Origin: Bilabrum cf. latius
Lineage: Eukaryota
Assembly (NCBI GenBank): GCA_965178125.1
Contig: OZ237757.1
Location: 124,001-188,000 of the forward strand
Direction: 5' to 3'
Length of the DNA: 64,000 nt
This document shows positions 1-64,000 of the stretch, piece by piece. The position numbers were made by a program, and so were the translations under genes. Below the pieces are notes generated by a model. That model was not told where the DNA came from. It searched no databases and saw nothing but the letters and a program-made list of their open reading frames with translations. How positions within the stretch are numbered: the first letter of the stretch is position 1; each line of letters starts with the position of its first letter.

Positions 1-1382
1 CCCCCTCCATGACCCGCCGCCTGCATGGCAGCGGGGGCCCAGGGCGGCAGCTCGGCGTGTGCTGCGGCCCACTGCAGGGACATGCGCGCCCTGGCTGATT
101 TCTCCACCTGGTTGCGGAACATGTCCGCGCGGCGCCTCAGGTCGGCATCGTGCGCTTGTGCCTGACTCTCAATTTCCCGCGCGTCAACCGATGCAGTCCC
201 CCCGGCCTGTGCTTCCCTACTGCTGCCGTGCCCACCACTCCTCCCCTGTTGACCCCCCTCGGCGCTGAGCCACTGCCCCGCATCCACCTTTTCGTCGTGC
301 CGTACTGCCTCAAGCAGGGTGAATAGAATACCGTTGTCTTGATCCGTGCCTGACTCCTGCTCCCTTGCAGACATCACACGGTCCCAGCATGGCCCGCACG
401 GCTGCCAGTCCATCCCAGCACCAGCACCAGCACCAGCACCAGCAAGTGAACCAGCACCAGCACCAGCACCAGCACCAGCACCAGCACCAGCACCAGCACC
501 AGCACCAGCACCAGCACCAGCACCAGCACCAGCATCAGCACCAGCACCAGCACCAGCACCAGTACCAGCACCAGCACCAGCACCAGCACCAGCCTTCCCA
601 AGACTTTCCGCTCCCTCAGGCTCAGGCCTGTCGCTGCCTACAGATCCACTGTCATACAGCAGTTGATCATCTCCCCACGCACCCTCTAGCACCACCCCGC
701 GGGCCCCTCTCTCCCGCCAGCCCGCGCTGCCACTCGCTGGTCCATGGTGATGACCCACGCTCGCCCGAAGGAGGGCCCGTCTGGCGGCGCGGAAAGGAGC
801 TGTGCCCGCCCAGACGCTTCGATTTGCAAGGCGTTCCGAATCCCTACTGTGAACGGTACCAATAGCAACACGGAGGGCGATGCCGAGCACGGCAAACTCT
901 GGCACCGGGAGAGCGAGCATCCGGTCCAGCAGGGCGAGGCGATTCTCGGGACAGTCCAGGCAGCTTTGCCGCATCATGTGCCGACGATGCATGACGGAAG
1001 AACCTGCCAGGACCCATGCCACCATCTTGGGTCCACCGAGTGCCTCAAGGCCTGTCTTGTTGCGCAGTTGCGACACACAAAGCGATGACTTTGCAGCGAG
1101 AGCATCTGCCAATGTATGCATGGTGCTCATGCCTTGAAACAAGAGCTATGTTGCGTGGGTAGAGCTGGCTTGCGCAGGGCAAACTACTGTTGCACACACG
1201 TCCTGCCAGCAAAGGCTAAGCTCCTTCCACCAATCTAAAATGTGACAGACGGTCTCCCTGGAGCAAAACGAGGGCGTATCATGACCAACACAGAATGGAT
1301 AGAAACATACGTCATTCATTGCCCAGGGAGCGTTTCGTACGCTCCACACAAAGGGAAAATATGGCCATCTCAACGAATCCAT
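1..1382 (-). CDS. Hypothetical protein with a long Gly-Ala dipeptide tract; runs off the window start (partial)
   Basis: ORF 1146..1397 ends in TAG (1146-1148), but the same frame then stays open to position 1 (QLLFQGMSTMHTLADAL...LGKAGAGAG...). Start is uncertain (ATG 1382 or 1319). No family recognised. Confidence 0.65.
415..591. repeat. (CCAGCA)n hexamer microsatellite, about 29 units with a few variant units; encodes (Gly-Ala)n on the minus strand
   Basis: Seen directly. It lies in the open minus-strand frame as GGT GCT repeats. Confidence 0.95.
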
Positions 1383-1453
1383 GCAATTGCAGCGCACTGC
1401 CGCACACCAAGAACATTTGGTCCAACGTCATATTTGGTTGTTTCTGCCTCACG

Positions 1454-2926
1454 ATGCGAGCCAAACTAAGTATTCTTGCATCAGCTTGCTTTATTGCCCA
1501 AGTATGGTCCATGGGAAGCAGTTTTGCTTCGCCATCGTTCGACATGCCTGACCTGCCGGAGTGGTACGACGCACGGATCCAGTCGCGCCGAATCAGCGCC
1601 AAGCAGGCCGCTGATGATGGCAAGGCATTTGCAATTGTGATTGATGCTGGCAGTACTGGAAGTAGGTTGCATGTGTACACGTGGAAGCCAGATTCCTCCG
1701 AGCATCTGCCTGCCAACCTGTCTACCCCCGTCGAAGAAACTCAAGACACCTACAGCGTAAAGCCGGGCATCGGCTCCGATGGCGGTCTAGACGCGCTGCA
1801 GACACTCCTGGATTACGCGCAGCAGAACACGACCCTGAAGGATATGAAGGACCTCTGGCCAGACATTCCGATTTTCCTCAAGGCCACTGCTGGCATGCGC
1901 ATCCTCCCTCGGGCCGAGAGGGAGAGCATCATGACCCAGGTGAGGGACAAGCTGAAGGCCACTGGATTCGAGTGGGTCTGCAGCTCCCAGGCCCGCGTGA
2001 TCAGCGGCGAGGAGGAGGGCGTCTTCGGGTGGATCACCGTGAACGCCCTGCAGAAGCGGTTGCAACCGGGACACATCCACGCCCTGGCCGACACCGTCGG
2101 GGCCATGGACCTCGGGGGCGCCTCCACGCAGATCACCTTCCGTCCCCAGTCTCCCGACATTTTGGCGGGCCTGTTCAACCTGCAGCTGGGCATGCAGATC
2201 AACGAGGACCTGTACACCCACTCCTTCCTCTACTTTGGCCAGAACGAGGCAATCCGGAGGCTCCTGCAGGTTAGCCTCTACCAGCAGCCGGGTGCCAGCA
2301 CCATCAAGAGCCCCTGCTACTACAAAGGCCTCTCCTTCGACTTCTATGACGCAGCGTCGGGCCGCAACGTGACGGTCGAAGGCGACGGCAGCTTTGAGCA
2401 GTGCGCCGGTTTGGCCACCGTGCTCATGGACAAGGACGCGACCTGCCTCACGGACTCGGCCCCGCGCTTCGGGGCCGCGGGTGGTGTGACGAGTGCGGCC
2501 CGGTCCGTGTCCCCCCCACCGATCAACCCCAAGGAGGGGGGCGCCTCTTGCAGCATCGGGGGCACGTACCAGCCCGCGCTCGGCGACTCGCCGTTCGTGG
2601 CGTTCAGCGCGTTCAGCTACCTGTGGGGCTTCCTCAAGCTCCCGTTTCAGGGAACGGACATGGACGCTCTGGAGGACGCCGTGCAGGTCCTGTGCGGGAC
2701 CAGCTGGGAGCAGGTGCAGAAGTAGAACCCGGGTGTGCCGGCGGAGTACCTGAGCCAGTACTGCGCCACCGGGACCTTCGCGCACTCGCTGTTTACCGAG
2801 GGGTACGGCATTGCCGGGGCCAGTACGCAGGTGATCGTGGCTGACCCAGCCGGGGCTGGGGCGGACTATGGCTGGACGCTTGGCTCGATCTACTTTGACG
2901 CCAACGCGGCGTGGAGGCTCAGGTGA
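1454..2926 (+). CDS. GDA1/CD39-family NTPDase (apyrase) with an N-terminal signal peptide
   Basis: Apyrase conserved regions are present: IDAGSTGSR (ACR1), ATAGMR (ACR2), GEEEGVFGWITVN (ACR3), DLGGASTQ (ACR4). ACR5 (GWTLG) lies downstream of an in-frame TAG at 2723-2725. Ends at TGA 2924-2926. Confidence 0.92.
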
Positions 2927-61318: not shown

Positions 61319-62424
61319 CTCACCCTTGTTCTCAAGCTCAGATTTTGTTGAGTTGCCTTAGATGCCGGCAGTTCGAGCGGGTGGGTCCTCGGGCGCTCCA
61401 TGGTAGGCTACGCTGCTCATCGGCGAATCTTGGTGCCACTGTGTGGGGCGCCAAAAGGTCAAATGGGAGGCATTACTCGTAATAGGATTTTTAAAATGTG
61501 TAAAGTGTCTTAAATATAGTACTGGCGCCAATTGAAGGCCCAATTCATTGCTCGGGGTTGCTGATGGAACCGTAGTCTTATTCCGGGATCGGCGAAGCAA
61601 CTACCGCACACAGTGCAGCTCAGTATTTGGGCCGATATTTTAATAATTTGGTGGGGTCTTCTACTCACAACTTTCCACTAGGGAGCCTTTTTGCAGAAGG
61701 CTGTGAACAATTGCCAATTTATTTCGGATTTGCCAGGGTACGAGGAATTGCACGCTACAAAACTGATGCGGAGTGGCAGAGAATGTCTCGTTCCACAAGA
61801 AATAATGGGGCACAATCGGTCTAATTATAGTTAACAAATGAAGCAAAGCTCCACAGGCCGACTGTTCTCTCCCTCAAGAGACAGTCTCGACAAGAGACTA
61901 GCGTAGCAAGTTGATCCATTGCGACTGGTGCCGCGGCCGCGCATATGCCAGCAGCAACGGAGCATTAAATGGAGCGCCCGATCACGGTCGCAAATCAGCA
62001 TCGAACACATCCGTGTTAGAGGAATCGTAAAAGCCAGGCTTTAAAAAATCGGCACCGCCCGACCCACGCCCTCCTGACCCCCCTTCCGTTGTCCAGCTTC
62101 CGAATGAGTCAGGTGATGTACGCCCTCCGCGATGGACCGAGCCCACGCACGCCATAACGTACTCATACCCCACAGGCCCGCCCGACTCCGACTCCTCGCA
62201 CATTTGCTCGCCCAATCATGTACACTCGTCACACTGCATACTCACCAAATTTTAACCCAAGCCAAATCTCTCAAGGTTCAGCTTTTCACGGCCATAAAAC
62301 CCCCCAAGAACTGTGTTGGGCCATAATGAGAGCTCGCAATAAACCGTAGTATAGCATTAGGCTCATAAATCATGGTAGACAGAGACAACGCTAGTAGAGC
62401 ACGAGCGGGAAGCGCACCTTCTTG

Positions 62425-64000
62425 ATGCAGCGGAGCGGAGCTGCACAGCTAGTGAATCGGTGCGTTTTAATCGCCTTGGTTTGTCTCTGTGTAGTAATTG
62501 TGTTTGGATTGGCATGGAAGCTGTCTTCCGTCAACAATGTGTCTGATCGAGAAGCTCGATCCGTGCAGGACAAGTCGACCACTGATGGTACACCAGAAAG
62601 CACGATAGGAGTCCAAATGGGAGTCTTGCGCGACCTGAATTCTGAATTATACGTACCAATACTCGAAGGCGCGTCTGATAGGGAGAGCGTGGGGAGTCGC
62701 AGCTCTGCAGGGCAGGTCTAGGCAGGCGGCGAAGATGACGTTTGGTCAGAACAGCCAGCCGCTGAGTCGTTTACGCAGGCTCAGTCCGAGCCAAGGCCCA
62801 GCGAGAATTCACCACGAGGCAATGGTGCCGCTGAGAGCAGCAAATCCCAGCCCGCACTGCCAGGCACCAGCACAAGCACAAGCACAAGCACCAGCACCAG
62901 CACCAGCACCAGCACCGGCACCAGCACCAGCACCAGCCCCGTAGAGGACAGCCCTCCAGCTTGGCTCACAGGCCGCAAGCTCGTGCTCTGGAAGCAGCGA
63001 CAGAGGTTGCAGAAAATCAAGCAAGAACGATTGCACGCACAGCAGCTCGAGCACGAGTCCCAGGACATCTGGTCCGAGGACAGGCAGCTTGCTGAGTCCC
63101 ACGCTCTGACAGCGCGCGAGCAAGACAGGGGCGCAAGGCACCGTGCAGGGGGTAGCCCCGTTCGAGCCGCGGGCTACAGTGACCAAGTCAAACAGGACAG
63201 GCCAGGCGTGCAATCGCAATCCTCGCACGGATTTGCCGGCCTGCAGACCCCAGCTGAATCGCAGCAATCAGAATCAGCGCAGTCGGAACCCCCAGAGGCG
63301 GTCCCCCCAAATCGTGCTGCAGAGCAGCTGACAAGCTAGAATGAGGCCCAGCACGAGAGCACACCATCCACTAGCCCCTCAAAACCCGCCTCGTACACGT
63401 ACCGAGGCCACCGCCCGGAGTACTCGTGGGAGCAGCTTGAGGTGGACCCGAAGGCAGGGCTCAAGCCCTTGGTCCTAGGCTCGGAGGCGGCCGGGCGCTC
63501 TGCTCGGAGCCAGTCCGCTGGGTTAGACGACTGGCACCCTTGTCGGACCATGCTCCTCGGAAGTAGATCGTTGCAGAGGTGCACTGCACTGTGGCACGCG
63601 GTGGACAGGTCGACCGGACCGGCGCAGGCACAGGCACAGGCACAGGATAGCGACTCACCAGATGCCCGCCCCCTGCTGTTTCGATACTTGCGGGGGCATT
63701 CAACCCTGAGCAGAGCGGGACTGACACCTAGTCTGTTCCCTCCGCTCGTCACACCGCAGCAGCACCCGCTTCTCCCACCCGCGTCGGCTTCGCCAAAGGA
63801 AGAGTGGGCCCTGATCGAGAACTTGCGGCAGGCGCACGCCCGCGAAGCCGAGCTGCTGGTCCTCATGACCACGGCCATGAGGCACGTCGTGAGCATGCCC
63901 ACCGCCGAGCACGAAGGGTGGCTCCGATCTGGTGGAATACCACTATCTACACCTTACAGAGTGGTCCCAGACGCACGGCACCCGTGGGAGGTCGCCGCAG
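62425..64000 (+). CDS. Predicted type II membrane protein with a low-complexity stem; runs off the window end (partial)
   Basis: N-terminal TM segment CVLIALVCLCVVIVFGLAW. The frame stays open to 64000 across TAGs at 62719 and 63337. Confidence 0.7.
62865..62937. repeat. (ACMAGC)n hexamer repeat encoding (Thr-Ser)n
   Basis: Seen directly. It is the same CCAGCA-type unit as at 415-591 but is read on the plus strand. Confidence 0.9.

Follow-up and report, generated by a model that had tools for sequence, protein, structure and literature searches.

We analyzed a 64-kb stretch of contig OZ237757.1 (positions 124,001 to 188,000, called the window below), in which the codon TAG recurs inside protein-coding genes. 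UAG is a sense codon in this DNA and, judged from sequence comparison, its meaning is almost certainly glutamine. The alignments and substitution patterns described below show UAG to be translated through and to evolve as Gln, as far as such evidence can. We consider it very likely that this reflects a real lineage-level reassignment of UAG to Gln, in which UGA as the main and UAA as the minor stop codon were kept. The window is eukaryotic, gene-dense and intron-poor, with a GC content of 58–70% per 4 kb (about 63% overall).

In-frame TAG codons and the reading frame beyond them

We built 25 gene models with a total of 15,590 codons. They contain 55 in-frame TAG codons, spread over 22 of the 25 models, and neither an internal TAA nor an internal TGA; the initial annotation, which had counted about 60 TAG in 22 of 27 models, was hence essentially right. 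Of the 23 modelled ends, 18 are TGA, 5 are TAA and none is TAG, in agreement with the earlier statement that no model needs TAG as its stop. A Pfam scan, done with TAG translated as X, gave matches for GDA1, CFAP300, TBCC, mitochondrial carrier, quinone oxidoreductase, phosphatase/EF-hand, PRP19, HGH1, nitroreductase (the IYD-like gene), phospholipase B, NAP1, PHD, LRR and MSS51. Eleven of these 14 Pfam-supported models carry TAG, 28 codons altogether, and 11 TAGs lie inside matched domain stretches of seven genes, i.e., four in TBCC, two in PRP19 and one each in CFAP300, IYD, NAP1, PHD and GDA1. Among the housekeeping genes named initially, PRP19, TBCC and NAP1 have Pfam matches, whereas PIS1 is without Pfam support and owes its name to a motif.

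The frames of many further models were picked by open reading frame (ORF) length and codon-position composition, and most of these have no family match. Three extra small multi-exon genes were incompletely modelled; their last exons stop at TGA, and the stretches read are free of in-frame TAG. Raw ORFs also include TAGs that sit in introns or 5' of the start codon, the HGH1 ORF being an example. The genes on which the argument draws are the following.

22833..24937, plus strand: PRP19, exons 22833-22845 and 23199-24937, ending at TGA; first exon and TGA are the same in the related contig L001 (see below)
23414..23419, plus strand: tandem TAG TAG of PRP19, codons 77-78, in the F-x-x-E-W-D motif and inside the Pfam Prp19 match
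4791..6407, minus strand: TBCC, TAG at 6266, 6047, 5579 and 5564, ending at TGA after an acidic tail that resembles that of its homologues
5562..5564, minus strand: TAG of TBCC codon 282, an invariant Gln column in the homologue alignment
33766-34803, plus strand: iodotyrosine deiodinase-like gene (IYD), TAG at 34120 and 34606..34608, the latter inside the Pfam Nitroreductase match
1454..2926, plus strand: GDA1/CD39 apyrase, TAG at 2723, ending at TGA
3304..4653, plus strand: CFAP300, TAG at 4003 within the Pfam PF14926 match, ending at TGA
13222..14964, minus strand: METTL18-like methyltransferase, five TAG, ending at TAA
41910..43631, plus strand: NAP1, four TAG, the first spanned by Pfam NAP, ending at TGA
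17716..22287, minus strand: phosphatase/EF-hand protein, TAG-free (0/65 Gln codons), ending at TAA; placement marker

Random nonsense changes would yield not only TAG but also TGA from CGA and TAA from CAA. We found 55 TAG per 488 CAG versus 0 TGA per 123 CGA (Fisher, p = 1e-5) and 0 TAA per 101 CAA (p = 1e-4). This control is partly circular, because the models were drawn to TAA or TGA. The non-circular evidence for TAG as a sense codon is homology that runs through the TAGs. In GDA1/CD39, homology extends beyond TAG 2723 up to the last conserved motif, and a PDB match of the METTL18-like protein (4rfq, E 1e-7) has stretches on both sides of the TAGs.

L001, a metagenome contig of 3.2 kb, carries the same head-to-head pair of phosphatase and PRP19 genes. 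Its PRP19 (956-3034) shares 69% protein and 67% DNA identity with PRP19 of the window. It has CAG CAG opposite the tandem TAG TAG, and an in-frame TAG of its own at 2477, in the WD40 region and 185 codons upstream of its TGA. Third positions account for 32 of 47 differences before the TAGs of the window, for 176 of 332 after them (p = 1e-13) and for 98 of 177 after the TAG of L001 (p = 1e-9). From this excess before and after the TAGs, we conclude that the PRP19 frame is under protein-level selection beyond every TAG.

Ten sequencing runs from five studies contain part of 1100-10500, none of them on record as RNA. Our comparison over 1100-21000 took in X5, X6, X8 and X10 and left out X1-X4, which are probably the source, as well as X7 and X9. 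X5 and X6 stem from two further studies; in them, four GT-AG introns are skipped, and several contigs start and end near gene ends. Among the pieces listed, X5/X6 contigs have TAG unchanged, with zero other letters, at 8 of the 13 TAG sites of 1100-21000; GDA1 TAG 2723 and CFAP300 TAG 4003 are unchanged in both runs, and four of the five TAGs of the METTL18-like gene are covered unchanged. That TAG is kept in runs with spliced introns argues against assembly error and editing. X5/X6 show no differences from the window and may therefore be the same strain. X8 and X10 contain a relative that differs by about 7–10% in DNA and covers 1100-21000 in all 30 bins. Among the GDA1 substitutions listed for this relative, which are all upstream of TAG 2723, third positions make up 9 of 9 from 1573 on and 10 of 15 across the coding sequence.

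TAG thus lies within intact genes, purifying selection persists after the TAGs, and neither TGA nor TAA breaks the homology-defined genes, which bears out the initial claims that UAG is a sense codon and that pseudogenisation is implausible. The genome-wide scope claimed along with them is extrapolated from the 64-kb window and the one 3.2-kb relative contig.

Two database proteins end at TAG. P0001, i.e., PRP19 of L001, is cut there at 380 amino acids, and P0045 (61 amino acids, 98% identical to TBCC of the window) ends at the second TAG. Gene callers cut proteins at TAG, so the proteome of this lineage is mis-annotated in databases.

The residue encoded by UAG and competing explanations

The TAG of TBCC codon 282 falls on a column with Q in 149 of 149 homologues and, among the PDB alignments listed, in 5 of 5. 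At the first PRP19 TAG, all 55 scorable loci (of 59 fetched) have Q, as do 4 of 5 PDB alignments among those listed. For IYD TAG 34606, four of the five PDB alignments listed have Q, these four being near-identical IYD sequences, and the fifth has H. A profile score over six TBCC and PRP19 columns with a flat prior gave 0.988 for Q and less than 0.003 for every other residue. In the window, TAG makes up 55 of 644 Gln-type codons (8.5%), next to 488 CAG and 101 CAA, and its share drops as the GC content of third codon positions rises (Spearman -0.68, p = 0.0002, n = 25 models), the behaviour expected of a minor synonymous codon. The initial annotation had placed TAG on conserved Gln motifs of PRP19, TBCC, IYD and CFAP300. 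This was confirmed for the first PRP19 TAG and, in 4 of 5 alignments, for IYD, whereas in TBCC it stood for codon 282, one of four TAGs, and not for the other three. Its meaning of UAG as Gln is supported by the conserved columns, the CAG CAG of the orthologue, the downstream selection and the runs of other studies. Homologue searches with CFAP300 found none, so the column of TAG 4003 was unreadable; the NAP1 homologue search likewise found no homologues, and alignments of phospholipase B, METTL18 and PHD had no TAG on an informative column.

Several points weigh against a reassignment to Gln. Columns at the other three TBCC TAGs vary (most often A, E and M), that of the second PRP19 TAG is mostly N, S or T, the NAP1 TAG is aligned with K in a weak stretch of a PDB match, and the TAG of L001, the single one that this contig supplies, faces CGG (Arg) in the window. 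Residues next to TAG are not significantly enriched in Gln (12/219, p = 0.13). The Gln assignment is carried by only three strongly conserved columns, and the homologue searches used a query with TAG as Q, which may slightly favour Q-bearing matches. Moreover, X5/X6 are RNA by guess (X5 is flagged as probably DNA), and no TAG-bearing contig crosses an intron.

Once the release factor eRF1 ignores UAG, an ordinary tRNA-Gln might read it as Gln by first-position mispairing, without a dedicated CUA tRNA. We regard this as unlikely. It would agree with the result that neither ARAGORN nor Rfam detected tRNA genes in the 64-kb window, and readthrough by tRNA-Gln has been reported in standard-code organisms (PMC13192750; this and the other papers cited were covered in part). 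It would also agree with the lack of TAG in three strongly biased genes (0/65, 0/15 and 0/10 Gln codons), since a codon that is decoded poorly should be missing from such genes. However, TAG TAG in the essential PRP19 and TAG at the invariant TBCC Gln need efficient decoding, and CUA has been argued to be the sole anticodon for UAG without UAA (PMC5304391).

Less probable still is an ambiguous UAG, i.e., Gln within genes and stop near transcript ends, like the context-dependent ciliate codes. Ends without homologues were drawn to TGA or TAA and could hide a terminal TAG, and several last TAGs are only 31–70 codons away from the end. Yet the closest TAG to any modelled end is 31 codons away, none of the 23 ends, a small sample, is TAG, and the ends set by homologues (TBCC, PRP19, phosphatase/EF-hand and GDA1) are TGA or TAA. 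A UAR code of the ciliate type, in which UAA also means Gln, does not fit, with zero in-frame TAA and five TAA ends, one of them homology-defined.

That UAG encodes another residue (Glu, Lys, Leu, Ser or Tyr) is very improbable. The variable TBCC columns 48 and 121 favour E or A, and the K opposite the NAP1 TAG and the Arg codon opposite that of L001 are on the same side, but the invariant-Q columns, the CAG CAG in the orthologue and the low profile score of every non-Q residue speak against it. TAGs fixed in mRNA by U-to-C editing, assembly errors or pseudogene stops hardly merit consideration: no record lists X5 or X6 as RNA, but these runs have spliced joints, contigs ending near gene ends and no other letter at the 8 of 13 TAG sites covered by the pieces listed, selection continues after the TAGs, homology-defined genes are free of interrupting TGA and TAA, and the distant relative L001 has an in-frame TAG too.

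Placement of the organism and further genes of the window

The TAG-free phosphatase/EF-hand protein, with 12 homologues, served as placement marker. Its best labelled homologue is from Cafeteria roenbergensis (cluster of P0176), with 47% identity over the region searched and 39% over 855 aligned positions, which supports the earlier view that the organism is not a ciliate. The tree had 15 rows, i.e., the query, 10 of the 12 homologues and four cluster members; P0176 was replaced by its labelled member and P0184 was omitted. On a long branch, the query comes out as the sister of a clade with four members that contains Cafeteria (support 89/94). The approximately unbiased (AU) test rejected its union with either other clade (p-AU 0.013 and 0.024) as well as its nesting within the Cafeteria clade sampled (P0175, P0177, P0189; p-AU 3e-54). 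The marker thus points to a single-celled flagellate, a heterotrophic stramenopile related to bicosoecids, outside the Cafeteria clade sampled. Against this stand the use of one gene with two labelled taxa, the long-branch warning and the midpoint-drawn tree, and we therefore call the placement likely, not firm.

The homologue P0194, labelled Symbiodinium sp. KB8, groups with metagenomic proteins, and its label may reflect contamination. A TBCC tree made with a quick method (67 rows, the query and 66 of 149 homologues) grouped the query with four proteins and did not enter the placement; one of its labelled members has a taxon id that maps to a fungus, perhaps through swapped digits. An Rfam scan of the 64-kb window gave no matches and no 18S.

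The remaining models are listed here.

35408..38131, plus strand: phospholipase B-like, three TAG, ending at TGA
27963..29824, plus strand: HGH1-like (DUF383/384), one TAG, ending at TGA
45592..51450, plus strand: PHD/JADE-like, 5' end uncertain, six TAG, ending at TAA
11314..12960, minus strand: mitochondrial carrier, four exons, TAG-free, ending at TAA; its three GT-AG introns are seen as X5/X6 joints
16045..17386, minus strand: quinone oxidoreductase-like, two exons, TAG-free once spliced, ending at TGA
6765-10457: one TAG
15341-15994: one TAG
26051-27484: three TAG
30020-30640: one TAG
31970-33625: three TAG
44603-45400: three TAG
51558-53771: LRR, three TAG
54071-55765: MSS51-like, one TAG
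56146-59082: three TAG
59254-60615: two TAG
60593-61318: three TAG
62620-63999: open, two TAG

Exon 1 of the quinone oxidoreductase-like gene seemed to contain a TAG, but this falls out of frame once the intron seen in X5/X6 is applied and was discarded. The introns at 12054-12360, 12424-12550, 12681-12927 and 17242-17335 are 94–307 bases long, start with GTGAG and end with CAG; introns are concentrated toward the 5' ends of genes. The IYD-like protein, from a protist, has an N-terminal hydrophobic segment and, in the PDB, matches iodotyrosine dehalogenases best (E 2e-48). ORF 6765-10457 comprises 1230 codons with strong codon bias and its single TAG; the Pfam search gave no family for it. At 38989-39774 and 40822-41332 lies a tandem pair of small Cys-rich multi-exon genes, both ending at TGA, which we take to resemble the PLAC8 family. 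In 56146-59082, a long tract of Thr/Ser/Pro repeats (about 57100-57720) precedes an aromatic-rich domain that matches no family, and the product resembles a surface glycoprotein. Two minus-strand ORFs within 59254-61318 overlap by about 20 bases (60593-60615) in different frames; they are either separate genes or the sign of a frameshift or of an intron that escaped recognition.

Proposed origin of the reassignment and comparison with known codes

In nearly all codes, UAA and UAG mean the same. The table found here, with UAG alone as Gln, is the same in the fornicate Iotanema and in three ciliates, and no stramenopile case was found; the code table is hence already known, and the lineage carrying it appears to be new. 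Searches of the openly accessible literature found no stramenopile nuclear reassignment; subscription papers, theses or supplements with per-species code tables could record one. In two 2026 Halocafeteria preprints the terms genetic code and codon are absent, and a 2024 stramenopile review has them only in its references. It is somewhat more likely than not that we are dealing with an undescribed independent UAG-to-Gln origin in stramenopiles and, with the same assurance, that it is the first nuclear code change in Stramenopiles, an independent and fairly old one shared by a bicosoecid-related lineage with about 30% PRP19 divergence. Its setting would have been a GC-rich genome in which genes end mostly at UGA, whereas UAA is the terminator in the known cases, and a drift of stops to UGA driven by GC may have freed UAG.

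For the UAG-to-Gln reassignment, we propose a duplication of tRNA-Gln(CUG) and, in the duplicate, a switch of the anticodon to CUA, which would pair with UAG but not UAA. This would be analogous to Iotanema, where CUA was argued to be the only anticodon with this property and tRNA-Gln(CUG) its simplest origin (PMC5304391). By the same analogy, eRF1, which is not among the genes of the 64-kb window, may have lost or weakened UAG recognition, e.g., by a change like the T32G carried by Iotanema eRF1 (PMC5304391). UGA ends most genes in this GC-rich genome, so UAG might have been little needed as a stop and open to capture. Stops would have drifted to UGA, UAG would have become rare as a stop before its capture, and C-to-T changes in CAG could then have spread it.

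If this holds, it would be the second non-ciliate UAG-only Gln origin; it would lie in another supergroup, for which genomic and apparently spliced transcript data are public. It would open to testing how one eRF1 recognises UAA and UGA but not UAG, what the source of the decoding tRNA was and whether GC pressure can be followed by codon capture. The relative in X8/X10 is well suited to counting TAG/CAG exchanges.

Among known systems, crAss-like phages with genetic code 15 share TAG as Gln, but in a bacterial two-release-factor and not a single-eRF1 nuclear setting (PMC9523058). Cafeteria roenbergensis is likewise GC-rich; in the part of its report covered, a non-standard code is mentioned only for the mitochondrion (UGA as Trp; 10.1101/751586). 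Among 265 marine eukaryotes of the MMETSP other than ciliates, screening gave no new codes, according to the part of the paper covered (PMC4967479). UAG is likewise split from UAA in the rhizarian exLh and in TARA ciliate metagenome-assembled genomes (UAG as Leu) and in Scotinosphaera (Ser), with other residues and in other lineages (PMC11687900).

The ciliates Hartmannula sinica, Trochilia petrani and Protocruzia tuzeti have the same table with UAG as Gln (McGowan et al. 2024, PMC11687900). UAG occurs in 78–84% of genes in Hartmannula and Trochilia versus 22 of 25 models here, and accounts for 18.5–31.8% of Gln codons in the recoded ciliates versus 8.5% in our window with its GC content of about 63% (PMC11687900). 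UAA ends 87–98% of genes in the recoded phyllopharyngeans, whereas UGA dominates here (PMC11687900). Outside ciliates, Iotanema spirale is the only nuclear UAG-only Gln case named in the literature covered (PMC5304391, PMC11687900, PMC9161772). This fornicate (Panek et al. 2017, PMC5304391; PMC9161772) resembles our organism in reading UAG as Gln, in keeping UAA as a stop and in not being a ciliate. It differs in belonging to an unrelated lineage and in its stops, UAA being described as a dominant one there, whereas UGA dominates here (18 of 23 ends).

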